Source: Minutocellus sp. GHC0000111 (lineage: Eukaryota). Taken from it: 64,000 nt of DNA. The stretch's first letter is position 1. Every line of letters starts with the position of its first letter. The DNA lies in NCBI GenBank assembly GCA_977018835.1, contig OZ361260.1, positions 558,001 to 622,000 on the forward strand, given 5' to 3'. Position numbers and translations under genes: made by a program. The notes under the pieces were generated by a model, which made no database searches, was not told the DNA's origin, and saw only the letters and a program-made list of their open reading frames with translations. Of this stretch, positions 20,686 through 47,643 are shown piece after piece.

Positions 20686-21151
20686 GTGCTATAATATGTG
20701 ATGTGATGTTTATTGTTGAGTGAGATTAGCATGTGATAATGCAAAGGTACCATGGTAGTATAAGTTGGCAGGCAGAAACCTGCACATCATGCATCGCCTA
20801 TCGCCGAGCGAGCACATTGATTTATTTGCAAATCGGCGATAAGACTTCTCCAAGGAGCTCATCATCGTGTCACAAGTCAAAGTGGGGTCGGTCTCTCCCT
20901 CTCTCTTTCTCTCTCTCTTTCTCTACTTTGACTTCCACGCCTTCAGATGCTTCCACTGTTGTGCTTCTGCCGTCTAAAAAATGTCACGGTCATTTTTGTT
21001 TTTGATCCCGCCACGACACGTGCCGAAAAACACACAAAATGACAACTGCCCCTCGCGACGCGACGTCGCGTCGCGTCGTGTCGCGTCGCGTCGTATCGTT
21101 GAACCACTTGCCATAAATCCACCACCACCATTGTGTAATTGCAACGGCACG

Positions 21152-23351: not shown

Positions 23352-23430
23352 AAGCAGAAGCTACTCAGCGGCCTCGACTCTTGGCAACCTAGCAAGCAGA
23401 AGCTACTCAGCGCCTCGACTCTTGGCAACC
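23352..23430. repeat. tandem duplication of a ~38-bp unit
   Basis: AAGCAGAAGCTACTCAGCG(G)CCTCGACTCTTGGCAACC occurs twice, separated by TAGC and followed by an (AT)n run. Confidence 0.9.
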
Positions 23431-23575
23431 ATATATATATACAAATATATACTAAAGTAGATCGATCTATAGATGTAGATCAGACTTGTCTACGATTACT
23501 AACGGTGTTAGAACCTCCAAGTCGACAGAGCAAACACTACAGAAGTGAAGAAAGACAAGCAGAGACACACATGTA

Positions 23576-26500
23576 CCTTTCGAGTTCAGAGGAATTGAAA
23601 GTGACGTGATGATGACGTATTAGAAACACGACCACACCAGACCAAAAATCCAAGCTCACTTTTTCTAACTCCGAGGAATAAATGACGGCCAAGATGGAAG
23701 TCGGGGCAAGAACCAAGTTATGGTCACCAACTTCTACATATAGTCGAGAGATATTGTGCACCAGAACCAATAAATGTACATTATGTGATGATTTTTTTCG
23801 ACATTTGCATTCCTCACCCCCGGGAAAAAATGCATTTTTGGAAGCACCAAATCAAAATGTAATGAATAGAAATGGACATGCTATGATAAGTTATAGCAAA
23901 TCAATGACTCCATCGTCTTCATCATTTTCATCTATGTCGTCCTCAATGTCATCATCTTCGCCGGGAGCATCAATTGGCCAGAGTGGTTCACCATCCTCTT
24001 CAGCTTCTTCCTCGGCAATTTTTGCGAGACCAGCCTTTCCCCGTCTGGTCTCCACAAGATTGTTACCGCCACGACTTCTCTTGATGTTGTTATATATCAC
24101 TGGAAGTTTTCCAAATACATTGAGAAAGGCCTCTTTTGATGCGACATTGGCCCATACTTTCATCACAGTCTTGTCAAGAGCATTCGCATCATTCTTCTGA
24201 CCGCGATGCTCCTTTTCGACGGCCGACTGCAAAGACATCCAGATGCCGAGATCAAGAACATTTGTCTCGGGCGACCGAGGAACCTGCTGGATTATCTCAA
24301 TCTTATATTTGTTTTTGAGGTCCTCGGTGTACTTCTCAACTGCTTCATTGGACCCATGACCGCCGGCATTGTCCATCATAAGACACATAACATCAGACTC
24401 CTGAACATTTTGTGGATCCCACTTCACCCAATGATGTGCGTCTCGAATCGCCTTCCCGACCTCATTCATAGTCTCCAACATCCATTTGGAGTCGCAGCTA
24501 CAGTCCTTGGTAACCTTATCGCCCCGTTGATACCGCACCCCGAGCTCAAGGTCGTCGATCTCAACCATCACCTTCTCTCCATTGCTATCAGGAGTGTGTC
24601 GCTTGAGACTCGAGATCTTTTGATTGTAGCCAACAGCGGCATGCTTGCGACTTTTTGCCTGACCGTCGGATTTATAGTCCTCGTGTTGAAGTTCCAATCG
24701 CTCTGTAACAAACTCAGAAAGGCCGTAGATTTCGGCAATGTGGTCGCAAAGATGGCCGGCGGTCATGTCAGCATTCTCGTCGTAAATGTCGCGCCAATCT
24801 TTGTCATTTTTTAGCGCAACGTTGACCTTAGCATCTGGAGAGAAATTCTGATTACGCGTAAGCTTTTCCACCTTCTGCTCCCTGGCGACTCTCTTGATCA
24901 TGATGCGCCCATTGAAATCAACGTCTTTGGTTTCATCCTTCATTGGTCGGCCAACAACTCCAAGACACATAACTTTGACAGGGTGTCTTCTGGATCGAAT
25001 TTTCGGGCTTTCCTCGGAAGCATGGACAGACGCGAGGTTCGGACTGCTTAGTTCTTCGTCAGAAAGTGGCAACATCTTGATCTTTCGTCGCCGAGTAGCA
25101 GTGTAAAACCACTTTTCATCAAGACACGCTACAGGAATGTTGCGATCGGTCGCAATGTCCTCCCACTTTTCGATCCAATCAAGTCGCTTCCTGCAACATT
25201 CGGGGGAGAGCCTCGGCTTCTCGATCGACGACTTCTCCTCACCGCCTTGCTTTTTCCACCAGCGAAAAAGCTGAAGACGATGGAGACTAATTGTCAGCCT
25301 ATCTTCATCTGGAGTAGCTGATTTTGCGCTCATGCAGTCAGCTAGCTCCTTAAAGGTTGCCATCGCACCCTCCATCCGAGCAGCATGCCGATGCAGCTCG
25401 CGGAGATGTCCTGGCTCCTTCTCCTCGATCATGTCCGTGCATGCCTTCCTTCCACGAACCTCCTTTCTGCCGATGGGATTGCTGATGCCATCAGCAAGGC
25501 TTTTTTGTAGAGCTGGTCTCTCCACTTGTAAAGCTGAGAACCACCGGTTGACTTGGCACAACCGTGATCGCACGCAACTTGCCGACACGCGGCAGTTGCA
25601 ATTTGTTGCCGGTCTTCATGCGTGCGAGTTGGGTCGCCGTGTCCCCACCAATCCGCGAGAGCCACGGCGCTGAACCGCATTCTTTCATTCGCCTGCTTTT
25701 CTTTTCTGATTGGTGTTGGTTCGGTGACGGTTGCATTGGGACGAGGAGGACGGAGCATGTCATCGTTGGCCATCCGAACAACAAAGTCGAGGCAGAGAGC
25801 GACCTTTACCTGTTCATCAATGTCACTGGAGGTGGCACAGACAACGGAAGCATCGGCTCCTCCTAAACCTTCATCATTGGGGGAGGCTGCAGCTGCTTCA
25901 GTGGCGGAAGTGTCACCAGTTCCCTTCAGCATGCTGAGGAGACTTGCTGGCATCCAACCCAGTTTCTTGGCCTCGTCGACTGCTAGTGATTTTGCTCTTG
26001 CTTCGCAATGCGCTGACTGTGCCTCCTTTCTGTGAGCTGACAACCTCTCACCTAGCTTAGTAGCTAAGACAGTCGAGCGCCCAGAGAACAGAGCTTCATC
26101 GGGATTTCTTTTCTCGTGCACCTTCTGTCCCTCCGGTCCAGAGAATTTCGGGTGGTTGTCCTCCTTCTTTTTACGCAACCTGTGAGCACAAACACAAAGC
26201 GCCCTGCGTCTTGTCTTCCCTCTCGGCCGACACGTCGACAAGTGCAACTTCAAACTACAATGCTCCTTGAGATGTTGCTGCACATCCTTCCATTTTTCCT
26301 CGTTGTACTGTAGCTCATGCCTTCCTCCACCGACGGACTTGGAACGCAACAAGTCGGCCTCGATGAAAGCAGGGAGGACGTCTTCCCATTTCTGCCGAGA
26401 ACCAACACAAATGTCATCTTTGCCGCAGGAATCGGGGGTCACTCTCCACCACAGATCCTTACCAGCCCTTCGAATGACATCTGCTGCAAGGAGAAAGGCC

Positions 26501-27026
26501 ATGGGGATGGGAGGAGGGGCCGTCCTCTTCTTCGCCGACGACGGTGACGGTTTGGCGGGGGCGAACTTGACCGTGGCCGCTTCTTCGACGTGTTTGCGCT
26601 CGGCGATGGTGTTTTCGGCTCAGCTGCCGCCTTTGCCGCCTTCCTGGATGCCTTGGTGTTGCCTCTCTTGCTCCCTGAGAACGAAGTTCTGCTGCGTTTG
26701 TATTTTTTGGGCGTGGTCTGGTTGGTCGTCGTCATCGTCACAAAATTTGCGGGTTGCGGTGAGAGAGGGTGTGTGCGGGGGACCAAAAAATGTGTGTGTT
26801 CCTGCCAGAATCTACTGGACCTGCGAATTCAGTGGATACTACTGGTCGGTGGCAACCTACTGAACGAGCAGGTCCAGTAGATATCCACGAGTTGAGGAGT
26901 ATTTGCGTTCCTCCCGAAGAGAACATCGACTAACGAAACACGTGGTGGGAAATGAGAAATGGGTGCAAGAATGACCTTTTTAGGGGTTATTGGTATACCC
27001 TCTACAAATCCTCTGAAACCGAAAGG
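23576..27026 (-). mobile_element. Tc1/mariner DNA transposon, DD39D (plant-mariner-like) group, copy 1
   Basis: TA flanks at 23574-75 and 27027-28; imperfect ~22-bp TIRs CCTTTCGAGTTCAGAGGAATTG / CCTTTCGGTTTCAGAGGATTTG; near-identical to 44177-47606. Confidence 0.92.
23891..26735 (-). pseudogene. disrupted DD39D transposase (copy 1)
   Basis: LDEKWFY, KVM.LGVVGRP, MDNAGGH and QVPRSPETNVLDLG motifs, with exactly 39 residues between the 2nd and 3rd Asp. Frameshifts at ~25500 and ~26505. Confidence 0.88.
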
Positions 27027-27172
27027 TAGAGCGGGTTATGGGAACCATAACATTGGGTTCGCTCGCTCGCGTGACTTGTGCGAACCTTTCGTGCGTCAGT
27101 CGACCGACCGACCGCCTCCTCACTTTTCTTCGGAACTTGTCAGTTCGAATTCGGCAAATTGCATCAAGTCAG

Positions 27173-28135
27173 ATGGACTCCACCCCCGACGCCGTGCTGC
27201 GCCATGCGTTTGACTATGTGCCGTCAAAAGCTTTCTTGCCAGTAGCGAATGTCTCGAAGCGTTTTCGATTCGTCTGGTTGGCGGATGATGCGTCAGCGCT
27301 GAGCTCATCACCGGCCTCAGATGCAGAAGGAAAAGTACCGGCAGATGATGATGAACGAAAAATGCCGGCCCGAACTGATAATGAGACCGATGACGAGCAC
27401 AAAATGCCTGCCATGGAGATGGATGATTCCGAACAGCCAACAACGACGTCAGCCGCAGAACTGAGGGCGGTATGGTCGAGCGGCGATAACGGCAACCATG
27501 CCGATGATGCCAACAAGGAGAAAGCCAAGGCAGGCCAAAAAGCCCCAACTACTCCACGCGATAGAAGGCTCACAAACCCGCTACAAATTGGAAATCTATT
27601 TAGTGTCCCATGGAACAAGCCCGCGAGAAAATCTCTAAATACACAACTACTCGCATATTTTATCGAGCAGGGATGGAAAGGAAAATGCAAAATGCGAAGT
27701 GTCCTGACTGGAGCAGCTGCACGAGGGGATGTTGAGGGCATGGAGTACATATTCGATAACGATTTGTATCCGGAAGATGATATCGAGATTTGCACTATTG
27801 CTGCAGCGGCTGGACAGCTGGACGCACTGGTTTGGCTTCGAGAAGTCAGGAAGCTGCCATGGGACCCGACTGAGATCCACCGCGAATCAAGCGAGAATTT
27901 ACACGAGGATGTGATGGAGTACGTGGAAAAGAATAATATCAAAAGACAATTCCTTCAAATATTTGTAGCGATCACTGGCAGAGAAATGCCCTGCCGTCAT
28001 ATCAATCTTGAGGCATGTCGGGCCGGATTCAGGGCTTGCTTGGTGGCGCAGCTCAGCGGCATGCTTGGCGGGCTCTGTGGGAAGGTGGAAGGTAGGAGCA
28101 TAAGTGAAAGGAAATTAGTGACAAGACAAAAATAA
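27173..28135 (+). CDS. ankyrin-like repeat protein (native 3' end apparently lost near 27940)
   Basis: N-terminal FLPVANVSKRFR; degenerate ankyrin repeats AAARGDVEGMEY and AAAAGQLDALVWLRE...PWD. The tail after 27940 is antisense of the neighbouring gene's last exon. Confidence 0.7.
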   Translation: MDSTPDAVLRHAFDYVPSKAFLPVANVSKRFRFVWLADDASALSSSPASDAEGKVPADDDERKMPARTDNETDDEHKMPAMEMDDSEQPTTTSAAELRAVWSSGDNGNHADDANKEKAKAGQKAPTTPRDRRLTNPLQIGNLFSVPWNKPARKSLNTQLLAYFIEQGWKGKCKMRSVLTGAAARGDVEGMEYIFDNDLYPEDDIEICTIAAAAGQLDALVWLREVRKLPWDPTEIHRESSENLHEDVMEYVEKNNIKRQFLQIFVAITGREMPCRHINLEACRAGFRACLVAQLSGMLGGLCGKVEGRSISERKLVTRQK

Positions 28136-30652
28136 TAATTTTCATCATGTCTTGTACACACAAAAAACAAATCACTTACCCCAATACTGGACACGAGGGT
28201 CGTGAAGGCCGCCAGTAAGGAGGCAAGAAGGATACTTCAAACCTTCTCTGACGTTGTTGATTGGGGAGTATTCCATCATGTATTCGTGGTACTTGACCTC
28301 GTTGGGGTTTCCCCACTCCTTCCATTCCACAACGGTCAACGGAATACTTGCGTCAATCATCGTGCAAACAACATCGACGAAGGGGACGCCCATGAGGGCA
28401 AATTTAAAGAGCTCCGGAGCTTCATTGATTGCAGCTCCGATCAACAAGCCGCCGGCAGACCTACCCTCGCAGCTGAGCTGATCAGGCGTGGTAATCTTGC
28501 GGTCAGAAATGAGATTCTTGGCCACTGTGGGCACGGCGATGGGATAGCATATCGGTGAAGGAAATTCGTAGATTGAATAATGCCAAAACAATAATAATCC
28601 TTTCATCAAGTTTTGTACACATGCAATTCACTTACCATCGACAAAATCATACCATGTATTCTTCTTGCAGAGGTATTTTGCCCCGTTAGGTTCCTCATAC
28701 CACTGTCGCCCCATCTCGCCGCCTCCACGGACGTGCGCAATCACGTAGACCATGCCTCTATCCAGGAGGGTTCTGCGAGTAGTGCGGAAGCTGGCTTCCA
28801 TGCAAGCACCGTACGATCCATAACCATAGAGGTGTGTTGGGACAGTCTCGCCAGCCTTGACCTTCTCCATGACATCTGCTCGAGCAACAATGCTTACTGG
28901 GATTTCCGTGGAACCATCGCGAGACAATACAGTGGTGCGCTCCGAAACATAGTCAGACTTCTCGTATCCGGGAACCTCCTGTTCCTTCAATGTCGTGCGA
29001 ACGGAAAGGTCGGAAGGTGAAGCGAGTGGGATGCTGATGGAGCTCAGTGGTGTGACGAGGGAATCGTAGGCAATAACAACCTCATCGGCAGTGCACTCCA
29101 GGTTGGATCCCAGGCCAACGTCGTACGCATCCTCGGTGAATTGAAGCTGGACAAAATCCTTGACATCAGAACTTTCAGCGCCTTCGTAGGCAATGACCCA
29201 AACCTGGGGCAAGCCACCCTCACGTCCAGTGGCAACGGAATGTGACTCAAAGGAAGTCACGCCGGAGATTGATCGGTCGTATCCGCCGTCAAACATGACG
29301 TTGCCGTTCTGATCCTTCATGTCGGTCCACAGCTCCTCAGAGTTGGCAACGGCCTTGCTCATCATCAGTCGCATGTTGGGAGTACCACCGACGTTGGTGG
29401 TAATGTACCAGTACCCAGCTCGGTGACGGACCGAATACAGAACCTTATCGCGCCTCTTGGCAACGCACTGCAGGGTGGCATTTTTATCGGCGAGGTCCAA
29501 GTAATGCACCTCACTGGTTTCCTTGGATCGCGAGGACACAAAGATGTATTTGCTGTCGAATGACTTGCTTAGACCGACCCAATACAGCTCATCGTCGTCC
29601 TGGTACAGCAATTCGTCGGGCTCACCGCTACCAATGATTCGACGGTAGAGCTGGAAAGGACGCTTCTATTCGTCGAATTTGAGGTAAAACAAGGTCTCAT
29701 CATCTGATCCCCATTGCAGAGCACCGTAGCACTCGAGCTTGTCGTCGTGATCAACAATCTCACCGCTTGCAATGTCCTTGACATAAAGAGAGCAAACTTC
29801 ATCCCCCGAGAAGTCAACTGTGTAGCCGACGACGTTGCCACTGGGACTGGTGCGGACCTGGCCTGTGGAACAGTACGGCTTGCCCTCGGCCAACGCATTG
29901 ATGTCGAGGTAGGCCCATTCATCCTCCAAGATGGGCGATTCCTTCGCACCATCCCACGCCTTGGCCTGCTCAATCCACGCATGTCTATCGCCCTTGGGAA
30001 GAGGAGCACGGCACAGCGACTTGTAACTCTTTCCTTCAAAGGTTCGACTGTAGTAAAGGAATTCACCCTTGGGAGTTGGTACCGTGTGATCGGTCTCCTT
30101 GATGCCCGAAAGCATCTCCTTGTACAGATCGTCCCGCAGTCCGTCCAGATGGGACGTCAGAGCCTCCGTGTAGGCATTCTCGGCCCGCAGATGGTCCAGC
30201 ACTTCCTCCACCTCGCGCTTTTCGTCGCGGAGCCACCCGTACGGATCTGGGACCTGGATCGGTGGGTCCAACAGCGCTTCGGCGGAGGATTCGGACTGGC
30301 GGATGAGCGGCTTGCCCTTGGAATCGGCATATCCGACGTCGCCCTCGCGGAGCAGGCCGGCGAGGACGTATCGGTCCTCCTCGCGGCGGGCCACTGGCGG
30401 TTGGGGCGTGCTGTTATCGGCCGAGGTCGTCATTGCCGATGAAACTACTGATGCGAAGCGATGACGTGGGTACTTGTTGCCGAGGATGCCGCTGCGAGTA
30501 TGGAATGCCGATGTGCTTCGGGTCAGGGTGAGAGCAAGGGCGAGTGATGCGAAGCGATGACGTTGGTACTTGTTGCTGAGAATGCTGCGAGTATGAAATG
30601 CTGACGTGCTTCGGGTCAGAGTGAGAGCAAGAGCAAAGCTTCGACTCTTCAT
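27899..30652 (-). CDS. oligopeptidase B (protease II, S9A); in-frame TAG at 29666-29668, possible pseudogene
   Basis: DPYGWLRD, LYGYGSYG, HVRGGGEMGRQWY, catalytic GRSAGG, GLHDPRVQYWEPAK and AGH motifs. Introns at 28635-28525 and 28179-28075. Confidence 0.9.
30449..30634 (-). repeat. in-frame tandem duplication (~96-nt period) within the oligopeptidase presequence
   Basis: ALALTLTRSTSAFHTRS(G)IL(S/G)NKY(Q/P)RHRFAS occurs twice. Confidence 0.9.
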
Positions 30653-31112
30653 TACTCCGGTACAAGGCGACAGGATCGATTGGTATCTTCGACGAATGCT
30701 GCTGATGCCGAAGCCATGGAGCGGCGTAAATGAGGCATTTTGCTGGTCAAGGACCTCGCAAAATATTTAATTTACAGTGACGGTTTGCGCGAGGTCTTTT
30801 TACTCTAAATATGTATGTGTTGGAACGCACCCAACCGCAGCCACCAGCACCGCAGAATAACGTTTGCCCGCCCGCCCGCCTGCCGTTTGTGCTCGATCCG
30901 ATTCATCAGTTTCTTTGGAAGGCAAATTGACCTGGCTTTTCAGCATTGGAGTCCATTTACTACTTACTTGGACCCAAGGCATCGGCAGTGCATCAGTATA
31001 CTTTCTATTTGGAGCGCCCCTTCTTCTGTGCGTGCGTGGCCTTACCGCCAATCAATTCCATCAGAGTACAGGCAATACAGGGAAACACAAAAATAAACAC
31101 CACCAACCAAAA

Positions 31113-32738
31113 ATGTCCGGTAACGGCACTCTGCCAGCGACGTCGTCGTATTCGAGCTTTGGAGGGGATTCCACCTCGTCGGTCCAGGCCATCACCACCG
31201 AGGGTTGGCTCGAATTGTTCCTCACGCCGTCTCAAAAGCGCACCTTCTCCAAGTGGCAGGAGGATGTGGCCGACAAGTCCCTGACGCACCGGGCCACCCG
31301 CACGTCGTTCGACGCCCTGGCCACGTACATTCCCGACTCCGTCGCGCCCAACGTCGTTACCGCCGCGGGATTCATGGCCCTGTCGCAATCGTGGTACCTC
31401 ATCAACAAGTACGGAGAGGAGTACCCCACGGCCTGCACGTGGTTTGCCGTGGCCAACATTCTGCTCTTCTTTGTGTTCAACAGCGTCGATCTCAAGCATG
31501 CCGATCGGATCCGACAGCGCACGGCCTTGGGTGATCTGTTCAAGTATTGCTGCGATTGCTGTTCGACGGTGTTCTTGGCCGTCCTGACGACGTACTGCAT
31601 GGGCGGAGTCGATCCTGTTACCCAATGGTATGCGGTCCAAATTGCCCAGCTGGTCCTGTTTACCAAGCATTTGAGCGCGTTCCATCGCAATGCCGGTCTG
31701 CGGTACAATGTGTTGACTGGACCTGGCGAAGTGATCCTCAGTGCCGTCATCCTCCTGGCCGTCCGTGCCACGTTGGGTTTGGATTGGCTCTGCAGTTTCT
31801 ACGAGAGCACCATCCACAAGGTCGTCGAGGCCCTCACGAGCAAGTACAATGTATCGATCCGTGACGATCACATGGACATTATCACCGATTCCGAGACCAT
31901 GGGCTTCGAGATGCTCCGATTGGGATATTACTGCATGTTCTACACGGCCGTCATCAAGGTGATGTTGCTGCAGAAGCCGCACGGGTGGACGAGGTTTGGC
32001 CTGAGTACCAGTCTGCTGATGCGATTTTTGCCGGCCATCCTTCTCCATTTGGGCATCGGTGCGTTCGACATCAAGACGGCCGATGTCATTTGCGATGGTT
32101 TGTTCATGGCCGTGTTGACGTCGGACGTTACGCTGGCCAAGATGGCGGGACGTGAGATCCACCCCTGGATTGTCCTCATGTCCATGTTTGCCGTGATGAG
32201 TCATCCCTTCATTCTGGTCCTGGTGATTATTTACTACATTGCCATCTTTGGTGATCTGTGCAGCTACCTCAACATGCCTCTGATGACGGTATGCCGCAAC
32301 GTCTATTGCGATGGTGTGTATGATCTCTGCCACATTGGTCACAAGACCTTGTTCAAGAATGCGCTTGCCTTCGGCAATCGTTTGTTTGTGGGCGTCGTTG
32401 GAGATGAGGATGCCTCGCAGTACAAGCGACCGCCAATTATGACCGGCGCCGAGAGATGTGCCGAGGTTGAGGCCTGCAAGTCAGTGACAAAGGTCATTCC
32501 TAATGCGCCTTGTTTTGGTTTGACCAAGGAGTTCTTGGACGAGCACCAAATTCACGTCGTTGCGTTCGGGGAGGAGTACCTCGACCGGTGGCCTGATCCA
32601 AAGGATGACATTTACTATGGATATGCTCGTCAGATTGGCATTGCTCGGCCGCTCCCCAGGACCAAAGGTTTGAGCACAAGTGACTTGATTCGAAGGATAC
32701 AAGCAGCAAGGCCTGCCGACGATAGGAATGATTCTTAG
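31113..32738 (+). CDS. CDP-alcohol phosphatidyltransferase-like domain fused to a C-terminal CTP:phospho-base cytidylyltransferase domain
   Basis: N-terminal IPDSVAPNVVT plus TM helices (CEPT/EPT-like). C-terminal VYCDGVYDLCHIGH (HxGH), YKRPPIM...ER and PRTKGLSTSDLIRRI. Confidence 0.88.
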   Translation: MSGNGTLPATSSYSSFGGDSTSSVQAITTEGWLELFLTPSQKRTFSKWQEDVADKSLTHRATRTSFDALATYIPDSVAPNVVTAAGFMALSQSWYLINKYGEEYPTACTWFAVANILLFFVFNSVDLKHADRIRQRTALGDLFKYCCDCCSTVFLAVLTTYCMGGVDPVTQWYAVQIAQLVLFTKHLSAFHRNAGLRYNVLTGPGEVILSAVILLAVRATLGLDWLCSFYESTIHKVVEALTSKYNVSIRDDHMDIITDSETMGFEMLRLGYYCMFYTAVIKVMLLQKPHGWTRFGLSTSLLMRFLPAILLHLGIGAFDIKTADVICDGLFMAVLTSDVTLAKMAGREIHPWIVLMSMFAVMSHPFILVLVIIYYIAIFGDLCSYLNMPLMTVCRNVYCDGVYDLCHIGHKTLFKNALAFGNRLFVGVVGDEDASQYKRPPIMTGAERCAEVEACKSVTKVIPNAPCFGLTKEFLDEHQIHVVAFGEEYLDRWPDPKDDIYYGYARQIGIARPLPRTKGLSTSDLIRRIQAARPADDRNDS

Positions 32739-32960
32739 ACTCCAGGCAGGTAACATTTCGTTTTGGTCGTCCTCATTCTTCAGATTTTGCGTTCACTGAA
32801 GAAGAAAGAAAGGCGGTCAGTTTTCATTTTTAGAGATACGATGCCACCAAATAAACTTAATAGACCTTTGCTAATGCCGATCGAGCTACTATACGTAGTC
32901 AGTGCCGGTACATTGCAGCTGCCGGTTGGGAGAGGTACAGGGCCTGTAGACTCTAAACAA

Positions 32961-33160
32961 NNNNNNNNNNNNNNNNNNNNNNNNNNNNNNNNNNNNNNNN
33001 NNNNNNNNNNNNNNNNNNNNNNNNNNNNNNNNNNNNNNNNNNNNNNNNNNNNNNNNNNNNNNNNNNNNNNNNNNNNNNNNNNNNNNNNNNNNNNNNNNNN
33101 NNNNNNNNNNNNNNNNNNNNNNNNNNNNNNNNNNNNNNNNNNNNNNNNNNNNNNNNNNNN
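32961..33160. other. assembly gap (200 N)
   Basis: Run of N. Confidence 1.
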
Positions 33161-34522
33161 GGCATGTGCTTTTGCCCTGTTCTCGTCAATGATTTCATCA
33201 GCTGCTTCAACAGCCGCTGCTCTGCATTTCTTTTCCACCTGTCGGGCATTCTTTTCGGTCGGATGGACGATGTCGGCCTTCGTGCAGAAATTCATGAAGC
33301 GACTTGCGTGCATGGCCTCATCTTCCGCTGCCTCCATCAGCTCCAAGTTCATTCCAGCCTGACTTCTAGAATGCTTTCTGCCGGGGCACACAACTTCTGA
33401 CCTCTGGCCGATCCAAGTGCAAAAAGAAAAAGGTTGGTTGCATCTATCGCATCGCCATTCAAATGTGACGCCGAATCCACGCCGAACTGGCTCGGCCGAG
33501 AGACACAGATTGCCGCACGATCGGTGGAGATTCTGCACGAAATCATGCAGCTGCTTCATCTCAACCACAACTCTTTTGCCGTTGAGCTGCACGCCGGTGA
33601 TGTTGGGACGATCGGTAGCGTTGGCGGTGGGAGTAGATGACCGACCGCCCGAAGAATTCTTGTCGGAATAATGTTTCAGTGTCGCGTTGAGATGGGGCCC
33701 ATGCTTTTCATCGTCCTGGAAGTAATTTTCAGGTGTGGTCGGCAGTGATCGCTTGCCATTGCGTTGAGAGCGTGGGCTGGCGTTATCGGCTATTCTGGAG
33801 AAGCGGTAGAAGGGCTTTGCAACGTCAAGGCCTGATATTTTCTCTGGACGTCGTCGTTGGATGTTGACCTCGTGTCGTGTTGGGACGTGTTGAAGAGATG
33901 ATCGAACAAGAGAGATCTCTAAGCTCGGCGACACGCCACCGCGCATCAAGACACGGACAAGCTCATCAATAGTGTAGTAAGTACATCTGACGTCGTCTGG
34001 GAATGAGAGCAAGAGTGAGAGGATTGCCTCCTTGGCGTTAGCACGTGATGTTTCCATGGTTGTTTTTTTGTTTTGCATCGGTTCTGGCGCAAGATGCGCT
34101 TTTCGATGAGAACCTTACAAAAAGAACCCCAAATGAGGGAGACGTGCAAAAATACCCCAAACAAATATCCCCTTACCTCCCAACAGCAAAACTTCAAGAT
34201 GTCTTCCCACCAGCACCACCAATGCTGGTTATGCGTCGGCCGAGACTAATTTCGGTCGATCCGACGATGATGTGTGCGTCGACTGTTGCATTTCTGAGGG
34301 AGAGTTGATTCATCGAAGTTCCTCTGAACCAAGTGTTCCTGGAGGGATTTCCGACTTAATGCTGAAAGGAACGTCGATGACTCTTCGCCACTGTGGAGAG
34401 CGGCGGCCTTCGATGAGGAGCCCATTGTCACGTTGGAGTGCTAACTTTGGCGATGGTGCGAAGAAAAAACGGCACAAAACACGCTTTTTGGGGGCTTCCT
34501 AAAAGTTATGGACAGCGCCCTC
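33161..34522 (-). mobile_element. 5' part of a DNA transposon (Kolobok-/Mutator-like transposase N-terminus), truncated by the gap
   Basis: ORF with C..C-type pattern HRSCGNL...RGFGVTFEWRCDRC followed by MNLELM...FMNFC, resembling the N-terminal half of PF20700-like transposases. Candidate terminus TTAA|GAGGGCGCTGTCCATAACTTTT at 34526-34501. Family call is from memory of motifs. Confidence 0.55.
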
Positions 34523-34630
34523 TTAAGGATCAAGCAAGGCAGTGGGGCAAGAAATCTGAGAAATACCAGGGCGTTCAGCAAGCCTACAGCCTACCGCTCA
34601 AATCATTGCCACGTTGCGATCTTGATACTG

Positions 34631-37300: not shown

Positions 37301-37572
37301 AAGATTCCAATCCAACGGCGGCAGGTACCAATGGAAAAAGCTTTGCCACGAGAACGACGGGCTTCATTATATATGTACGGATAGAATTGGATCCATCCGG
37401 AAGCGGTGCAAGCATTAGAGATTCTTGTTGTACTGTTTGCAAACGTCCAATTTATATTACGTTCGTATAGCCAAAAAATCAAATCTAACTGACTAACCAA
37501 AAGAAAAAAAACAGTACTCCAAAAAAATCAGTACCGGAGCTCACAAGCCCCTCTCGTCAACACTTCTTAACG

Positions 37573-39189
37573 CTAATACTCGTAATTCTCGTAGTTCTGC
37601 TGACAGTGGACCGGGTGGATGAGCTCCCCGCTGACGCTGCACCGGTACATGCCCTCGTCCTCGGTGACCGTCCTCCAATCCCACCCCTCGCTGGCAAACT
37701 CCAGGGCGTTGCGCTGGGCGTTCTCGTGCAGCTCGATGCGGTTGGTCCACAACCGATCGCGGATGCGGTGGGAGTATTCCGACCGCATCGGTATCGGCGT
37801 CACGCGGACCTGCTCCCGGAACGTGATGCGCTTCTTCTCCTTGCGGGTGGTCGGAACGCTGTGGGTGGAGGATGGGTCCAGCTGACCATCGGCGGTATTT
37901 TCCTTCTCTTCTTCGGCTGTACTTGCTGCTGGTGCTGCTGCAGCTGTACCTTCTTGTTGTTGTGCATCGTTGCTACCTCCATCTTCTTGCTTGTCGCTGC
38001 TGCCCGTCGCACCATCGTCACCGCTTGTTGGATTCGGCTCCATATCCATTTCCAGCTTTTGTTCCTCTTGCTTGTTTCCATCTTCAGCCAAAGTTGCGGT
38101 ATTGGTATTGACCCCCTCTTCACCCTCCTGTGCATTGCTACCATCCTCGTTATTAATATCATCGTTGTTATTGTCATTGTTGTTCCCCAACCCAAAGAAT
38201 CGCTTCCATGCATTCCTCTCCAATCCATCGGCCACCCGATCCTCCCGGAATTTCAGGGGTTCGTCATGACTGGCCACCCCCCCCAAAAGGCTGGTCCGGC
38301 CCGTCTGACTGCTCCCCCCGACCGCACCCGGTGGCAGGTTGCCCCTGCGCATCATCATGTCCGACGGGGCGTGCGGCATCCCCCCCACCCCCCCGGCCGC
38401 CATGGCCTTGGAATTGTCAATCCCCAGCTTGTGCAGGAGGTCGGACCGGAGGCGGCGGGAATCGGCCAGGTTGGGCAGGGACGGATGACGCCGGTGCGAC
38501 ATGCCCTTGCCGGTGCTCGTGGAGGTGGTGGTCTTGGCCGTGGCGATGCTTTTCGAGTCTCCACCACCGGCCTTGCCACCCTTCCCGTCCTTGCCCAGAC
38601 TCGGCCGGCGGGTCTTCTTGGGCTTGAAGATCATGGCCTCACCCTCCATGGTGCGGCGGGTGTGCTCGTCGGGGAGGGGTATGTGCTTGGCGCTGGAATC
38701 CAGCTCGGGCGGCGGCGGGGGGACGTTGGGATTCTTCGGATTGGTGCCGTCGGGGGACGGTCCGAAGGAATCCTGCCGCCGGAGGGCGTTGGGCGGCGGG
38801 CCGGATCGGCCCTCGGGCGACGAGGGCTGCGACGTGGAAGGCGAGGCGGTCGTCGGTCTCGGCGGAAGGCCACCCCCAGGACTCGCCGGACTTGCCGATG
38901 CCGCCGCCGGTCCCAGATCCAGACCGCTCACCCCCCCGGCGATGGCGGCCATTTCCGCCAATGCGTCGGCGGCGGCACTCGCCGGATGCGCCCGGGGGCT
39001 GCTCTGCGGGGTGGTCGCGGGAGATGTCGAGGCCGAGGCCGAGGCCGAGGAAGCGACGGCCCCGAATCCCGGCGAAGGGGGCTGGGCGGCATGAGGGATG
39101 TGCCGCGGAGATGCCGGCGGGGTGCTGGCGCTTGCCTGTGCGGCCGACGTCGTCGCCGGTGACCGCGGCCGAGGAGGAAGGCCGGGCAT
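37573..39189 (-). CDS. low-complexity protein with conserved-looking C-terminal domain (RVxF-like motif)
   Basis: Pro/Ser/Ala-rich N-terminus; C-terminal [22 protein letters not shown]...[14 protein letters not shown]...GELIHPVH. Confidence 0.75.
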
Positions 39190-39485
39190 AGTATCAACTA
39201 TGTTATGGCGTGTTATTGGATGCGCGTTGCTTTGTACGCGACCGGCCGTGGTATGGCGTACCTAGGTATGCATGCATCAATGTCCGCCGGCGGAGGCCGG
39301 CCGGATCATCCTCATGGTTCCGAGAAAAGGCCTTACAGAAAAATCTGACGTCATTCAAGCATCATAAAGAAATGCGACAAACCGCCGCAGTCGCCTTCAT
39401 TTTTTCATCTGCTTACCACCTTCCAGTCCAGAGCCAGGTGCTCAGGAGCCACCGACTGCACACACAGCCCAAGCGTACAGGCATC

Positions 39486-40586
39486 ATGAGCAAGAGAAAG
39501 TTCGACGAGGTATCTGGCACCGATGTGACAAGCGCCGGCGGCGAAGCCAGTCCCAAATGTGTCGCCCCAGTTATGAGCGGCTGGGCCGCCCTCCCACCCG
39601 AGCTCATCCGAGGCATCGGCCAACTGCAGTCCGACGCTCGCGGTCTGGCGGCGATGGAACGCACGTGCCGTCCCTGGCGCAGAGTTGTGATGGAGGGGAA
39701 TGATGATCCCGAACTGCCAGGTGGGGTTTGCGGTGGTGGTGATGATGATGACGATGATGACGAAAATAAGAAGGCCAAGGAAAAGGTCAAGGCCAAGCCT
39801 TCTTGTCTTTGGCGTGACCTGGCCCTGACTCAGTTTCCTCGGTTGGCCTCAATCTCGAAGCTTGTAGGTGATGGTTCGGACCCTACTTGTAGAAGGGGTG
39901 GCGATAAGAAGTTCTCCTGGAAGATGCTCTATCGCGAGCAGTTTCGGGTATCATCTAGAATACAGCCTGTTGGACGATACCAGCCTACAACCGAGTTGAG
40001 CGACTATATTTTCTCATTTGAGTTCCGCGGCATCAGGGATGATGAACTGCTCTTTGTTACCTCATGCCGAGGCGATGAAAGAACCCCCAAGCTTTGGGAT
40101 CAAAACATTGAATATCACGACGGCTCAGATATTCCTATCTGCCAGAACCCAGTCGATCCGAGGCTCGTTTCTCGTCTGGGAAACAATCCTTTTGCCGAAG
40201 AAACTCTTGTTAATCAAATTACTGCCAATGTGATAGTTACTCGTTTGTCGGACATGAAAGCTGTTAAAGTGGCGACAAAATATTTCGACCCAAGAGATGG
40301 CGAGTACACGGATGATGATGGCGACTTAGTCTGGAAGAACGACGTGGGAGGGAATACTTTCATGCCCGTTAAAGCCTCTTCCTCTCCTGTTTATGTGCAC
40401 CTTACGTTTTATCTCAGTTGCGAAAGCGGTCGCATTCTTTTTGAAATAAATCAAGCTGAACTTGAATGGGGCTTTATCGTGGAAGGTAGCATGGAAAGGG
40501 AAAATTTGCGCGTAGAGACTTCGTATTGCAGAACCCATGCTATACTCAGGTATCTGGAATGTCAATGTCCTTGGCCAGATAACTAA
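39486..40586 (+). CDS. F-box-like protein
   Basis: WAALPPELIRGI...LAAMERTCRPWR...LWRDLA...SWKMLYR pattern. Confidence 0.65.
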   Translation: MSKRKFDEVSGTDVTSAGGEASPKCVAPVMSGWAALPPELIRGIGQLQSDARGLAAMERTCRPWRRVVMEGNDDPELPGGVCGGGDDDDDDDENKKAKEKVKAKPSCLWRDLALTQFPRLASISKLVGDGSDPTCRRGGDKKFSWKMLYREQFRVSSRIQPVGRYQPTTELSDYIFSFEFRGIRDDELLFVTSCRGDERTPKLWDQNIEYHDGSDIPICQNPVDPRLVSRLGNNPFAEETLVNQITANVIVTRLSDMKAVKVATKYFDPRDGEYTDDDGDLVWKNDVGGNTFMPVKASSSPVYVHLTFYLSCESGRILFEINQAELEWGFIVEGSMERENLRVETSYCRTHAILRYLECQCPWPDN

Positions 40587-40868
40587 TTCTACTTTGGCAA
40601 TTTTATCGCTGGAAAAAAAAACTAGCAGTCTACACACTCATTCACTTGATTGAACTGTCTATCTTACAGCTCTAGTTTCAATATCTGACAGGCATACTCC
40701 ATCACAACCAAGTCGCTACGCATATAACATGCTGATATTTTTTGCTCTGTCTGCTTCGTGCACTGTGCGAAATATAAATCTCGTCAATGGCAAATAAACG
40801 AGTCAGATGCAGTGAGATATGGCACCAGGACAACTAGCGTCTTCTAGTCTAGCTACGTAGTAGGCTAG

Positions 40869-43532
40869 CTAATGCACTCCGTTGGCCGTTCCGCATCGGT
40901 GATAGTATTTGTGAACCTCCAACAGCTTATCGAACTTCCTCTCCAAGAGGAGCTGATAAGGCTTGACATCTTCAAGACCTTCCGGAACACTTCCGCCACC
41001 CCCCCAATGATAATGTCGCCCCCTCAAGACGCGATTCTCGGGCATCCACACCTGGCCAATGGCTCTCTGCCGGGTGAACCCGCCCTGCCATCCCGGGGCA
41101 CCAGCCAAATACTCAATAACGGGCGTGGTTTGAAGATAATCGCGCGCAGCACGGGACAGCTTGGTATATTCCGTCTTGCAGAGCTTGAGGACATCGACGA
41201 AGTCACCGAACGAGGAAGTGACCACGTTGTACTGCTCCTCGCTCTTGATCTTCTCGAAGATCGTCTCAGTCAGGTTGCGGTGGTCGATGGGATCTCCGGC
41301 CTCGAGAGCTTCGCCATCCACCACAAGCGTTGCCGATATAATACCGCTGAGCTCATTCCTACTCGATAGGAGATTGAGAAGGGCCGCCTTGTACGATCTC
41401 CTGCTCAGTAGGTCATAGAATTGCGGGGTGAACTCGTCCTGGGCATGGTAAAACCAGCGGCTCGTGGGATCCTCGTGCTTGTTCAGCAGGGTCGCGAGGT
41501 TGGTGAGATCCTTCTGTTGGATGTGGTTCAGAAGTTTCTGCTTCAGACGAAGTTTCAGCTGACGATCCGCTGCAGAGCAACCCTGCTGCTCGGCAGCTTG
41601 AGCCGTGAGGAAGCTGAAGGACGCAAACTCCGGATGAGATGCAAACGTATTGAGATTCTCACGGATACTGGCCACCGCATTATCCACACGCTTCTGAGCG
41701 TAGGAGGGACCTCGAATGAAGGTAACAAGCTTCTGATGAACCTGGGGGAGGGAGAAACGAAGGGGCAGATTCGTATCGTCATCACACCAGTGATAATCCA
41801 TAGCCAGCGCCTTGATATCGTCGGGCAGTTCCTCGACGGCTTCCTCCAAGATGGGTAGGATTTGGACCAGAGTCTCCTTCTTGCGGGCGATGATGGCCTT
41901 GCGGTTGTCTTCCTTGCCATCGTCCTGTTTGGCGTAGAACACCTCGAGCGCCTCCACGGCCTCGTCGTAGTACTGAACGAACTGGGTGGCGGCCTTCTCA
42001 TACTCATCGTACCGTTCCTCGCCCTCCTTGCCGTATACTTCCTCGCACAGCTCGCCAAAGGCCTCCTTCTGAGCATCGACGCCATCGTTTCGATACGAGT
42101 GGCATAGCTGCATGATGTGACGGGCGTTGAGGAATGGTCCGATTTTCTCTCCGTCGGGTCCCTCCATCAGGTCGGCAACTGCCAAAGGATGGAAGAGCTT
42201 GGAACTTCCAATCTTGAGGATCTTCTCTTCGGTGCGCCCCCAACTGTAAATGTAAGCGAATGAAATAAAAATGGCAAGGTGAGATGAACAATAGTACGTA
42301 GTAAATACCAGTAAAGTGAATATATAAACGGTAGTGCACGTGTTCTTCGAGCACGGCTCCCTAAGCTAAGCCCACTCTTTTGCTGACTTTGTAATATATC
42401 CTTTAAAGGATAACAAATAACACGCAACACACACACAATTTAGCTACAATGCATACAATAGAGACAATATGCAAAATACTCACTGGTTCCACCACCGAGG
42501 AATCGTGCGGCAGGCATCGTTGCTGCACTTGTGGCACAGAGCCATCCCAAACGGACGGGCCGCCCCATCGACGCCAAGACGCGTACTGGCCGTCTCCTTC
42601 TCGGTGTTGTAGTCCCAGCACTGCTCGCCCCGCTCGCAGCTCTGGGCACAGAGCAGCCGTAGAAGCCGGAGGGGACTGGGTACGTGCATGGCCCTGCAAC
42701 GGACGTCCTCGGCGAGCTGCGTCATGATCTTCCGGCAGCCGTCCACCTTCTTGTTGCCGCTCCACCCGATGGCACCGGAGGATTGTAGCTGCTGCTGCTG
42801 ATCAGCAGCGTTGGCGTCCGTTCCATCACCATCGCCGTTGTTACTACCGGTGTTACTGTTACCACCCCTCTTCTTCTTTGGTGCAATCTTGGCCATGGCA
42901 TTCTCGTGGACGGCAGCCCTCACGATCAGATCATGCCGCCGCTCCACGAAGGAAAGCAGATACTTGGACTGGTACCCGAGGTTCAAAATGTCGCGGCAGC
43001 GTGGGAGCATCTCGAAAATGATCGTAATGACCGGACCGGGAAGCTGATCGAGAGCGACGGTGAGGTTGCCGTTGCCGATGGTCCCGTCGGGGTTGGGACG
43101 GTACGGGTACGGCCCCTCGAGCTTGCGGCGCTTGTCTTCTCGCTGCCGCTGTCCCTGCTCCTCGTGATGGCGGAGGAGGGCCTCAAAGTCCTTGTCGGAA
43201 TAGAGGGCACCGTGGTTGACCATCGCGAGGGCCGAGTTGGTGCTGTTGGCGTTGTCATCATCGTCAGTCTCGTTGGTAGTGAAGGTGGAGGCGGCTCTCT
43301 TTCGAAGGGAGTAGCTGGACGAGATGGTAGCGGAACTCTTGGCGGGTGACTTTGACGTTTTGTTCTTTGCCGATGCCTTTTTCGTGGCCGTCTTGCTGGA
43401 GGTGTTGTTGGTCGCCACGGGTTGAAGGGCGGATGACGACGACGCCGAGGCCGAGGCCAAGGCCGAAGTGGCTACGCCACGGGTCCGGGTGGATCGCCTG
43501 GTGGTGGTGCCGCTGGTATTGCTGCTGCTCAT
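40869..43532 (-). CDS. unknown-family protein (F-box-like N-terminus, Cys cluster), intact paralog
   Basis: Two exons joined by intron 42483-42244, giving WWNHWGRTEE, which matches the paralog's WSWNHWTRQE; LDQLPGPVITIIFEML F-box-like segment. Confidence 0.78.
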
Positions 43533-44176
43533 GGTGGAGAATGGCATGAAGTGCAGTGCTGAAAGATCCGCCGTATCCATCCACGTTGGATTTTCCCCAG
43601 TTTTTCTGATGTCATCATGAGGTCATTGTTCCCGCCTACCCAGCCCGCCAACTCTGCTCGGCTGAAGCCGCCGACTCACATGCATGCTGCCGCCTGATGC
43701 CCACCCATGAATGATTAAGTATATTATATCCTTATAGGTGGGGACTGACTGCATGGCACGCGTGTTGCAGCATGCGCATCCGGTGGCGTGCGACAGCGCC
43801 GTCAGCGAGACGAAGACCGTCAGTCTTGGCTTGAAAAACACATGCAAATCTCCATTTCGTAAGCCATCCCTGTCCTCAGTGCCTGACCTCAGGTAGCCCT
43901 ACATGTGCTGATCCTCACCTCACCCTCACACAACCTTATCCTACAGTATTTTAATTTGCGCTCTTGTTTATGTTATCGATATTCGCTCTTGCTGATGCAA
44001 GTGCGGCTGCCGCTACATGCATTCAATTGAATTGGATCTGGTTCTAACCTTTTTCATTACGATCGACACATGTAGATACGTGTAGATTTAAGTTGTACTT
44101 AGCGGGGGGACACCACCACAAAAATGTCGAAAAGCACGATGAAAAAAATACCAACACTCTCTATGGCGTACTCGTG

Positions 44177-47100
44177 CCTTTCGAGTTCAGAGGATTTGAA
44201 AGTGACGTGATGATGACGTATTAGAAACACGACCACACCAGACCAAAAATCCAAGCTCACTTTTTCTAACTCCGAGGAATAAATGACGGCCAAGATGGAA
44301 GTCGGGGCAAGAACCAAGTTATGGTCACCAACTTCTACATATAGTCGAGAGATATTGTGCACCAGAACCAATAAATGTACATTATGTGATGATTTTTTTC
44401 GACATTTGCATTCCTCACCCCGGGAAAAAATGATGCATTTTTGGAAGAGCACCAAATCAAAATGTAATGAATAGAAATGGACATGCTATGATAAGTTATA
44501 GCAAATCAATGACTCCATCGTCTTCATCTATGTCGTCCTCAATGTCATCATCTTCGCCGGGAGCATCAATTGGCCAGAGTGGTTCACCATCCTCTTCAGC
44601 TTCTTCCTCGGCAATTTTTGCGAGACCAGCCTTTCCCCGTCTGGTCTCCACAAGATTGTTACCGCCACGACTTCTCTTGATGTTGTTATGTATCACTGGA
44701 AGTTTTCCAAATACATTGAGAAAGGCCTCTTTTGATGCGACATTGGCCCATACTTTCATCACAGTCTTGTCAAGAGCATTCGCATCATTCTTCTGACCGC
44801 GATGCTCCTTTTCGACGGCCGACTGCAAAGACATCCAGATGCCGAGATCAAGAACATTTGTCTCGGGCGACCGAGGAACCTGCTGGATTATCTCAATCTT
44901 CTATTTGCTTTTGAGGTCCTCGGTGTACTTCTCAACTGCTTCATTGGACCCATGACCGCCGGCATTGTCCATCATAAGATGCATGACATCAGACTCCTGA
45001 ATGTTTTGTGGATCCCACTTCACCCAATGATGTGCGTCTCGAATCGCCTTCCCGACCTCATTCATAGTCTCCAACATCCATTTGGAGTCGCAGCTACAGT
45101 CCTTGGTAACCTTATCACCCCGTTGACACCACACCCCGAGCTCAAGGTCGTCGATCTCAACCTTCACCTTCTCTCCATTGCTATCAGGAGTGTGTCGCTT
45201 GAGACTCGAGATCTTTTGATTGTAGCCAACAGCGGCATGCTTGCGACTTTTTGCCTGACCGTCGGATTTATAGTCCTCGTGTTGAAGTTCCAATCGCTCT
45301 GTAACAAACTCAGAAAGGCCGTAGATTTCGGCAATGTGGTCGCAAAGATGGCCGGCGGTCATGTCAGTGTTCTCGTCGTAAATGTCGCGCCAATCTTTGT
45401 CATTTTTTAGCGCATCGTTGACCTTAGCATCTGGAGAGAAATTCTGATTACGCGTAAGCTTTTCCACCTTCTGCTCCCTGGCGACTCTCTTGATCATGAT
45501 GCGCCCATTGAAATCAACGTCTTTGGTTTCATCCTTCATTGGTCGGCCAACAACTCCAAGACACATAACTTTGACAGGGTGTCTTCTGGATCGAATTTTC
45601 GGGCTTGCCTCGGAAGCATGGATGGACGCGAGGTTCGGACTGCTTAGTTCTTCGTCAGAAAGTGGCAACATCTTGATCTTTCGTCGCCGAGTAGCAGTGT
45701 AAAACCACTTTTCATCAAGACACGCTACAGGAATGTTGGGATCGGTCGTAATGTCCTCCCACTTTTCGATCCAATCAAGTCACTTCCTGCAATGTTCGGG
45801 GGTGAGCCTCGGCTTCTCGATCGACGACTTCTCCTTACCGCCTTGCTTTTTCCACCAGCGAAAAAGCTGAAGACGATGGAGACTAATTGTCAGCCCATCT
45901 TCATCTGGAGTAGCTGATTTTGCGCTCATGCAGTCAGCTAGCTCCTTGAAGGTTGCCATCGCACCCTTCATCCGAGCAGCATGCTGACACAGCTCGCGGA
46001 GACATCCTGGCTCCTTCTCCTCGATCATGTCCGTGTGTGCCTTCCTTCCACGAACCTCCTTTCTGCCGATGGGATTGCTGATGCCATCAGTAAGGCTTTT
46101 GTAGAGCTGGTCTCTCCACTTGTAAAGCTGAGAACACCGGTTGACTTGGCATGGCCGTGATCGTGCGCAACTTGCCGACACGCGGCAGTTGCAATTTGTT
46201 GCCGGTCTTCATGCGTGCGAGTTGGGTCGCCGCATCCCCACCAATCCGCGAGAGCCACGGCGCTGAACCGCATTCTTTCATTCGCCTGCTTTTCTTTTCT
46301 GATTGGTGTTGGTTCGGTGACGGTTGCATTGGGACGAGGAGGACGGAGCATGTCATCGTTGGCCATCCGAACAACAAAGTCGAGGCCGAGAGCGACCTTT
46401 ACCTGTTCATCAATGTCACTGGAGGTGGCACAGACAACGGAAGTGTCGGCGGCTCCTCCTAAACCTTCATCATTGGGGGAGGCTGCAGCTGCTTCAGTGG
46501 CGGAAGCATCACCAGTTCCCTTCAGCATGCTGAGGAGACTTGCTGGCATCCAACCCAGTTTCTTGGCCTCGTCGACTAGTGATTTTACTCTTGCTTCGCA
46601 ATGCGCTGACTGTGCCTCCTTTCTGTGAGCTGACAACCTCTCACCTAGCTTAGTAGCTAAGACAGTCGAGCGCCCAGAGAACAGAACTTCATCGGGATTT
46701 CTTTTCTCGTGCACCTTCTGTCCCTCCGGTCCAGAGAATTTCGGGTGGTTGTCCTCCTTCTTTTTGCGCAACCTGTGAGCACAAACATGAAGCGCCCTGC
46801 GTCTTGTCTTCCCTCTCGGCCGATGCGTCGACAAGTGCAACTTCAAACTACAATGCTCCTTGAGATGTTGCTGCACATCCTTACATTTTTCCTCGTTGTA
46901 CTGTAGCTCATACTTTCCTCCACCGACGGACTTGGAACGCAACAAGTCGGCCTCGATGAAAGCAGGGAGGACGTCTTCCCATTTCTGCCGAGAACCAACA
47001 CAAATGTCATCTTTGCCGCAGGAATCGGGGGTTACTCTCCACCACAGATCCTTACCAGCCCTTCGAATGACATCTGCTGCAAGGAGAAAGGCCATGGGGA

Positions 47101-47606
47101 TAGATAGGAGGAGGGGCCGTCCTCTTCTTCGCCGACGACGGTGACGGTTTGGCGGCCGCTTCTTCGACGTGTTTGCGCTCGGCGATGGTGTTTTCGGCTC
47201 AGCTGCCGCCTTTGCCGCCTTCCTGGATGCCTTGGTGTTGCCTCTCTTGCTCCCTGAGAACGAAGTTCTGCTGCGTTTGTATTTTTTGGGCGTGGTCTGG
47301 TTGGTCGTCGTCATCGTCACAAAATTTGCGCGGGTTGCGGTGAGAGGGGGTGTGCGGGGGACCAAAAAATATATGTGTTCCTGCCAGAATCTACTGGACC
47401 TGCGAATTCAGTGGATACTAATGGTCGGTGGCAACCTACTGAATGAGCAGGTCCAGTAGATATCCACGAGTTGAGGAGTATTTGCGTTCCTCCCGAAGAG
47501 AACATCGACTAACAAAACACGTGGTGGGAAATGAGAAATGGGTGCAAGAATGACCTTTTTTAGGGGTTATTGGTATACCCTCTACAAATCCTCTGAAACC
47601 GAAAGG
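44177..47606 (-). mobile_element. Tc1/mariner DNA transposon, DD39D group, copy 2
   Basis: Same TIRs and orientation as copy 1. Right flank TA (47607-08), left flank TG (44175-76). Similarity to copy 1 stops exactly at the TIR ends. Confidence 0.92.
44496..47314 (-). pseudogene. disrupted DD39D transposase (copy 2)
   Basis: Same motifs as copy 1. Stops at ~44901 (TAG) and ~45780 (CGA>TGA); frameshift at ~46135. Confidence 0.88.
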
Positions 47607-47643
47607 TACCGGCACATTCCAGAACCCGTGGTAATAATGGCGC

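Follow-up and report, generated by a model that had tools for sequence, protein, structure and literature searches.

TpA loss by A:T to G:C changes on both strands of transposons in a diatom genome

Two copies of a DNA transposon, here called A and B, lie in a 64,000-nucleotide stretch of the diatom Minutocellus sp. GHC0000111 (contig OZ361260.1, positions 558,001 to 622,000; hereafter the window), and they differ largely by exchanges among the dinucleotides TA, TG and CA. What process makes these exchanges, and on which DNA does it act? To our knowledge, nearly all mutational defence described so far for eukaryotic genomes relies on cytosine chemistry, namely repeat-induced point mutation (RIP), APOBEC deamination and the decay of 5-methylcytosine (5mC). 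The original prediction, made from the letters of the window alone, held that transposon TpA is converted to TpG or CpA by a change of A to G on either strand. We find that the process is a dinucleotide- and motif-specific change of A:T to G:C on both strands, which is cumulative and centre-weighted within the elements.

Polarity of the differences between two transposon copies

Self-comparison of the window returned one long repeat pair, the 3.45-kb copies A and B, which are 96.6% identical (Table 1). Their global alignment contains 70 substituted bases and 12 gaps, the gaps being mostly duplications of 1–4 bp. The substitutions comprise 16 changes between TA and TG or CA, 14 CA/TG doublets (a 15th, at 25851-2, adjoins a 3-bp indel), 7 changes of the CG class (one of them produced by misalignment at an indel), 6 further transitions and 13 transversions, including a few alignment artefacts. 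The earlier tallies of about 15, 15 and 6 for the first three classes were closely reproduced (16, 14 plus 1, and about 6), and the exchanges of Cys and His at the same positions were seen in the translations of both copies. Of the changes, approximately 46 affect TA (about 110 sites visible), 6 affect CG (about 190 sites) and 6 lie elsewhere, a per-base ratio of roughly 100:8:1; the copies still have 79 TA and 186 CG in common. The doublets carry a flanking context as well, with a 5′ purine in 14 of 14 and a 3′ pyrimidine in 11 of 14.

The direction of change was read from relatives of the transposase, and further copies were approached through protein fragments from a protein collection in place of genomic DNA copies. 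These fragments, 78–95% identical and located on megabase contigs, belong to a cluster of 275 members and probably represent further copies, either in this genome or in one very close to it. We used 43 fragments together with A and B, omitting P0114 as a duplicate of P0005. For the Tyr/Arg, motif and positional counts, the near duplicate P0120 and two 60-aa pieces were also left out, giving 42 copies. At the sites where A and B exchange Cys and His, Tyr and not Arg is present in P0001, an intact homolog of 852 aa with 88% identity over the query, and Tyr also in most distant homologs, as had been anticipated. Across the 42 copies, 667 observations at 31 Tyr sites include 149 Cys, 178 His and not a single Arg, and CGN codons remained Arg in 812 of 825 observations. 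On this comparison of homologs, we regard as settled that the ancestral state was TA (Tyr) and that the polarity is TA to TG or CA on either strand.

Motif, position and scope of TpA loss

The mutation spectrum was obtained by mapping amino-acid changes in fragments of open reading frames (ORFs) on inferred codons. After T, A>G was seen in 457 of 2241 opportunities (0.20); the rates after A, C and G were 0.003, 0.006 and 0.001, respectively, which places AA>AG about 70-fold below TA>TG. C>T was similarly rare before G (0.005) and before A (0.0065), and A>T after T stood at 0.001. Among 88 interior strand-sites, the base that follows the A has the strongest effect (rates of 0.29 for C, 0.38 for T, 0.06 for A and 0.015 for G), and the base that precedes the T has the second strongest (purine, 0.28–0.36; pyrimidine, 0.12–0.14). 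Interior YTACT was mutated at 0.35 and YTACA at 0.02. The two strands behave alike, at 0.23 for coding and 0.25 for template interior sites, and both TpG and CpA products are present. Thus, the hot motif is (R)TAY, where R is a purine and Y a pyrimidine, and it is mutated on both strands.

Position within the element matters too. Tyr codons in R-TAY context were lost in 327 of 383 cases (85%, 16 sites) when more than 800 bp from an element end and in 17 of 60 (28%, 6 sites) when nearer; in Y-TAY context, 33 of 203 were lost. Three of the 16 interior R-TAY sites, which read His in every copy, were probably fixed in the founder. At the hot Tyr sites, Cys or His occupies 19 of 20 in A and 19 of 20 in B. 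A four-gamete test found all four combinations in 47 of 55 site pairs, so most changes are recurrent rather than inherited, although gene conversion could add to this signal. One event can be ordered directly: copy A has a duplicated CTA that reads CTG CTA, and since this duplication is specific to the copy, the change to CTG came after it. The load per copy ranges from 0.2 to 1.0, with a variation among 36 copies above chance (0 of 3000 shuffles), and it is uncorrelated with the other changes in the same copies (rho 0.13, p 0.46). Same-strand runs of changes were not significant (151 of 286 against a null of 139.6 ± 7.8, p 0.08). Relative to P0001, the protein copies show 22 one-residue insertions, 14 of which repeat a neighbour, and 2 deletions.

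The composition of the window agrees with these counts. Its longest RTAY-free stretches are the cores of B and A (Table 1); the next, of 900 bp, runs across the N gap and a Mutator-like element, and none elsewhere in the window exceeds 523 bp. Positions 23801-26700 of A contain 8 RTAY where 37 are expected (Poisson p 9e-9). The observed/expected ratio (o/e) for RTAY is 0.34 in A and B and 0.20 in the Mutator-like part, whereas 19 host ORFs give 0.84 and the rest of the DNA 0.89, so the RTAY depletion of the transposons does go beyond that of the host. CG o/e is 0.9–1.0 in transposons and host DNA alike. The segment 25531-25806, put forward earlier as free of TA, does contain 0 TA and 26 CG. 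However, it ranks only fifth by length among the TA-free gaps in the window, and as longer gaps exist in GC-rich DNA it is weak alone and was dropped as strong evidence. A general loss of TA target sites, also proposed, did not hold: the host keeps TA, and only flanking target duplications of the elements are affected, as at the left end of B, where TA has become TG.

TpA loss extends to a second, unrelated transposon family. In the Mutator-like ORF, eight relatives and their cluster mates alternate among Tyr, Cys and His at ENYF, KYYS, QLYD, NLYL and KAYA, with one Arg, in one copy, at the matching sites. By contrast, the host bicarbonate transporter at 11691-13961 retained 20 of 20 Tyr residues when compared with three of its four closest orthologs and 20 of 21 when compared with the fourth, and host ORFs contain 3.4% Tyr. 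These composition and protein controls support the view that TpA loss is confined to transposon DNA and that host genes are spared. Nevertheless, spread into adjacent or captured host-derived DNA is likely from the sequence of P0276, a protein encoded outside the window, in which 176 aa of host type continue into Mutator transposase sequence. Its host-type part has 7 private changes, against 0–3 in each of 12 cluster mates; 6 of the 7 are T>A, V>A, M>V or Y>C and are compatible with A>G/T>C.

The 24 metagenome loci of transposase relatives gave no clear excess of Tyr>Cys/His, most being too distant and several depleted in CpG, and 67 other homologs, selected for open frames, have Cys or His only 0–2 times at each of 13 conserved Tyr columns. 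Some Y>H/C changes do occur in protein clusters (3 of 6 distinct changes in those of P0001 and P0004; Y644C and Y676H in that of P0002), which is a hint only. Six metagenomic relatives (L010, L013, L016, L019, L023 and L024) display CG o/e of 0.05–0.38, stops and Arg>Gln/Cys, which is classic CpG decay in other hosts, unlike this genome.

Sequencing runs show the same site classes. Of 23 listed runs, 20 (from 8 studies) contain the window stretch or part of it, all as contigs. Assembled contigs were compared on copy A, with variants taken from 40 of 48 rows and runs with small shares of the stretch excluded. Among the rows listed, X1, X5 and the Illumina RNA runs X6 and X9 carry CA/TG doublets and TA/CA/TG three-state sites (variant sites 25407-8, 24386-7, 25851-2, 26924-5, 25240-1 and 25300-1); X6 and X9 come from two other studies and X5 is a DNA run of a third. 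Two A>G rows, at 25572 and 26232, are without a partner C>T among the rows listed, and the protein copies have no Arg there. RNA-run contigs keep TA at more sites than do DNA runs, but because contigs drop rare variants we give this difference no weight. Copy A is a polymorphic insertion, since joints in X1, X5 and X6 skip the element; at the empty site, X1 and X6 have TA TA and X5 has TG TA. The stretch 21000-30000 also turned up in runs of sponge metagenomes and marine metatranscriptomes from several studies.

Candidate chemistries and their rivals

We assign a probability of about 0.55 to the reading that a candidate host enzyme, deaminating adenine to inosine in silenced chromatin, converts transposon TpA to TpG or CpA on both strands, mostly at (R)TAY and mid-element. 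Each copy would gather changes singly after insertion, over many divisions. The first change on either strand would remove the palindromic target on both; this would account for the alternation of CA and TG and for the absence of a further step to CG. A transposase that loses conserved Tyr and other residues would be disabled. The process would act on chromosomal DNA after insertion, because such elements have no RNA intermediate and one change follows the copy-specific CTA duplication. An ADAT2/TadA-type deaminase is a lead for the enzyme, silent chromatin or small RNA may provide the guidance, and the process may be a selected defence or a by-product of silencing; a role in genome defence is one possible interpretation of the pattern. 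We favour adenine deamination because the preference for a 5′ T and a 3′ pyrimidine resembles that of TadA-derived editors, because AA and TC are spared, and because ADAT2 has been proposed as the candidate deaminase for a similar process in the rhizarian alga Bigelowiella natans (bioRxiv 10.64898/2026.01.13.699255). Indeed, one review describes engineered TadA variants as preferring YAC (PMC13109818), and the B. natans preprint cites amphioxus ADAT2.

Several points weigh against this reading. According to the same review, no DNA adenine deaminase is known from nature. An A>G change in TAY appears on the opposite strand as T>C in RTA, and sequence cannot tell which base is altered. A processive deaminase acting on single-stranded DNA might leave strand runs, and none was significant. 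The background of the spectrum is inflated by some mis-assigned ancestral states. Since frameshifts or stops unrelated to TpA also break copies A and B, their inactivation need not be due to the process. The TG allele of the empty site in X5 may be an excision product or a change on transposon-free DNA, the latter of which would count against the reading. Finally, targeting is not universal: P0007, a one-member relative of 58% identity whose contig equals in length that of a mutated copy, keeps its Tyr, and copies P0040 and P0098 are only 20–28% mutated. These three escapes are useful for asking what avoids targeting. With regard to a trigger by sequence duplication, both mutated families are multi-copy and the one-member P0007 is spared, yet the mutated insert of B. 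natans is single-copy.

A bolder form of the deaminase reading is tentative, and we hold it doubtful. Here diatoms would have a dedicated defence enzyme, a natural DNA adenine deaminase acting on double strands with an (R)TAY preference, which would be directed to silenced transposons, whatever their class, and to adjoining host sequence, and would erase Tyr codons there. Such a system would be the mirror image of RIP and a natural adenine base editor, common to Rhizaria and possibly old in SAR (stramenopiles, alveolates and Rhizaria).

The alternative that survives best, though we judge it unlikely, is that the thymine is modified. A TET/JBP-type dioxygenase would place 5-hydroxymethyluracil (5hmU) at RTA of silenced transposons, and oxidation to 5-formyluracil, which mispairs with G, would yield T>C as the by-product of an epigenetic mark. 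The sequence outcome is identical to that of adenine deamination, and the centre-weighted gradient fits a chromatin mark. In dinoflagellates, TET/JBP enzymes make 5hmU marks that help silence transposons (PMC11572971), a transposon-directed chemistry on the A:T pair, and work of the 1980s put 5hmU at TA and TC (as cited in PMC11071213). However, a base-resolution 5hmU map in Breviolum is described as without sequence preference (PMC11071213), and the portions of these two reports that concern the mark do not report it as mutagenic. In our data TC sites are spared (GA>GG, 0.001), and our literature search found no 5hmU or TET/JBP data for diatoms.

It is rather improbable that the changes arise during patch repair of methylated or heterochromatic transposons, with an error-prone Y-family polymerase (eta or iota type) placing G opposite T. 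Pol eta targets WA, hence both AA and TA, and also makes transversions; against that profile, we observe AA>AG at 0.003 and TA>TG at 0.20, with A>T after T at 0.001. On the other side, both strands are mutated without runs, and the many short tandem duplications in the copies (the 22 insertions against 2 deletions noted above) suggest that patches are often repaired. Between A and B, CpG transitions also run about 8-fold over other transitions (6 of about 190 CG), which is consistent with CG methylation as reported in Phaeodactylum (PMC9998398).

We see only a slim chance that TpA mutation is biased genome-wide and stands out in transposons because selection cleans genes. Host TpA o/e is indeed also low, at 0.53–0.66, and the empty-site allele with TG exists. 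Yet host DNA outside called ORFs has the RTAY o/e of 0.89 given above, TATATA runs are intact 120 bp from A, and the host depletion sits in YTAR, the class that is spared in transposons. A genome-wide bias also fits poorly with a rate that drops from 85% to 28% toward the element ends, or with Phaeodactylum mutation lines, reported as GC>AT biased (PMC6604790).

The two last alternatives can be set aside briefly. Reciprocal CA/TG is the classic mark of 5mC decay and about 6 CpG changes are present, but CpG decay from an ancestral CG as the source of the doublets is refuted by the outgroup, given Tyr and not Arg in homologs, 0 of 667 Arg, the retention of CGN Arg and a CG o/e of 0.9–1.0, and fungal-type RIP read backwards fails because RIP would create TA; that neither accounts for the pattern, as the original prediction argued, is confirmed. 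An assembly or base-calling artefact is very unlikely: the evidence is from assembled contigs and X1 may be the source sample, but doublets and three-state sites recur in X5, X6 and X9 from other studies (e.g. 25407-8, 24386-7 and 26924-5), and the motif is strict and the gradient positional.

Related systems and features of the window

The original prediction knew of no named system, but TpA hypermutation has been measured in B. natans. Mettrop et al. 2026 (bioRxiv 10.64898/2026.01.13.699255) report 231 de novo mutations in two viral inserts, nearly all A>G/T>C at TpA. The mutations arose in 11 of 15 lines, at a rate of about 6e-7 per site and generation, and in some lines the rate was raised about 1000-fold. 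The two cases share changes of A>G/T>C only at TpA, giving TpG or CpA on either strand, restriction to foreign or mobile DNA with host genes spared (here by composition and protein controls), and unevenness, between lines there and between copies here; the overdispersion among our copies is only a hint of ongoing activity. As described in the preprint, the B. natans targets are a single-copy giant-virus insert and a virophage region in which TpA is still plentiful and for which the text gives no flanking motif, whereas the diatom process affects multi-copy DNA transposons of two superfamilies rather than viral DNA, is near saturation, and has the (R)TAY motif and a centre-to-end gradient. An enrichment of DDE and reverse transcriptase domains among TpA-poor ORFs of B. 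natans also hints at transposons there. The process has therefore been in print once; what is new here is its occurrence in DNA transposons and in a stramenopile, together with the motif, the gradient and the near saturation. Our literature search, which lacked most subscription journals, found no paper describing TpA hypermutation in diatoms.

RIP, in Neurospora and other ascomycetes, likewise riddles transposons on both strands with dinucleotide-specific transitions and can reach adjacent host-derived sequence. It makes TpA from CpA, however, whereas the diatom process removes TpA by A:T to G:C change and makes no stop codons. RIP is premeiotic, is triggered by sequence duplication and depends on RID. 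Diatoms do carry DNMT4, related to RID (PMC9998398), yet a methyltransferase that acts on cytosine leaves changes at A:T unexplained. AMT1-dependent N6-methyladenine shares a symmetric adenine modification in an A/T dinucleotide; it is described as lying at ApT of active gene starts, not enriched in transposons and with little mutagenic trace (10.1101/2024.10.28.620566). The changes here are restricted to transposons and affect GTAC, which lacks ApT, at 0.34 and ATAT at 0.26.

A strong A:T>G:C process in diatom transposons may be relevant in several ways. First, it would extend the B. natans report to a second branch of the supergroup and to ordinary DNA transposons. Second, the motif and the positional gradient discriminate between candidate enzymes, and the genetic tractability of diatoms puts the enzyme within reach. 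Should it prove to be a natural DNA adenine deaminase, it would matter for base editing. Finally, there are practical effects in diatom genomes: stop codons and Tyr are removed, spurious ORFs are inflated, and transposon age estimates and GC content are distorted.

Table 1. Transposon features of the window (positions of the 64,000-nucleotide stretch)
Feature	Position	Strand	Basis
Copy A, Tc1/mariner-like (DD39D) DNA transposon, TA target duplication at both ends	23574..27028	-	Self-comparison, alignment, empty-site joints
Copy B, same transposon as A; left target duplication TG, right TA	44175..47608	-	Alignment, terminal-repeat search
TA + left terminal inverted repeat of A (22 bp)	23574..23597		Arms of 24 nt with 88% complementarity to 27005-27028
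Right terminal inverted repeat of A + TA	27005..27028		Terminal-repeat search
Transposase of A, two frames, break near 25500 (2-bp duplication)	23891..26619	-	ORFs, homolog alignment
RTAY-free core of A, 1775 bp	24530..26305		Motif scan
RTAY-free core of B, 1973 bp	44925..46898		Motif scan
Mutator-like transposon part, with TpA loss; right end approximate, N gap cuts element	33161..34500	-	Pfam Mutator PF20700; RTAY o/e 0.20; Tyr/Cys/His swaps among copies
Left flank of A, CA CA CA TG TA; empty-site alleles TA TA or TG TA	23566..23575		Run contigs

The anatomy of A and B is that of the IS630-Tc1-mariner DD39D class: each has 22-bp terminal inverted repeats within TA (TG at the left of B), and P0001 has a DDD triad, D444, D693 and D733, with the 39-residue spacing, in keeping with the class first proposed. 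We take the motifs around these residues, from the IS630-Tc1-mariner family, to be the catalytic ones. The assignment rests on anatomy and motifs, because P0001 has no Pfam match and no relevant PDB match above threshold in profile and PDB searches; Pfam scores in relatives are below the cut-off (HTH_Tnp_Tc3_2 in P0017, E 7e-6; DDE_3 in P0002 and P0007, E 0.04–0.07). Different from the class are the long 852-aa transposase and its placement in a diatom family with marine relatives. The transposase of B, on the minus strand, is disrupted by stops and a frameshift. Upstream of the transposase, both copies have a subterminal hairpin (26810-26882 and 47389-47461) with 24-nt arms, a 25-nt spacer and 88–92% complementarity.

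The window is gene-dense, with a GC content of about 50% and a single gap, the 200-N scaffold gap at 32961-33160 that interrupts the Mutator-like element. A GC-rich part, 37489-39261, contains two 500-bp TA-free gaps and open frames of 557–562 aa on both strands, with no Pfam match. The best named relatives of the bicarbonate transporter are from diatoms (Seminavis, 67%; Epithemia, 71%; Odontella, 64%), which identifies the host as a diatom, and further relatives reach 86% identity.

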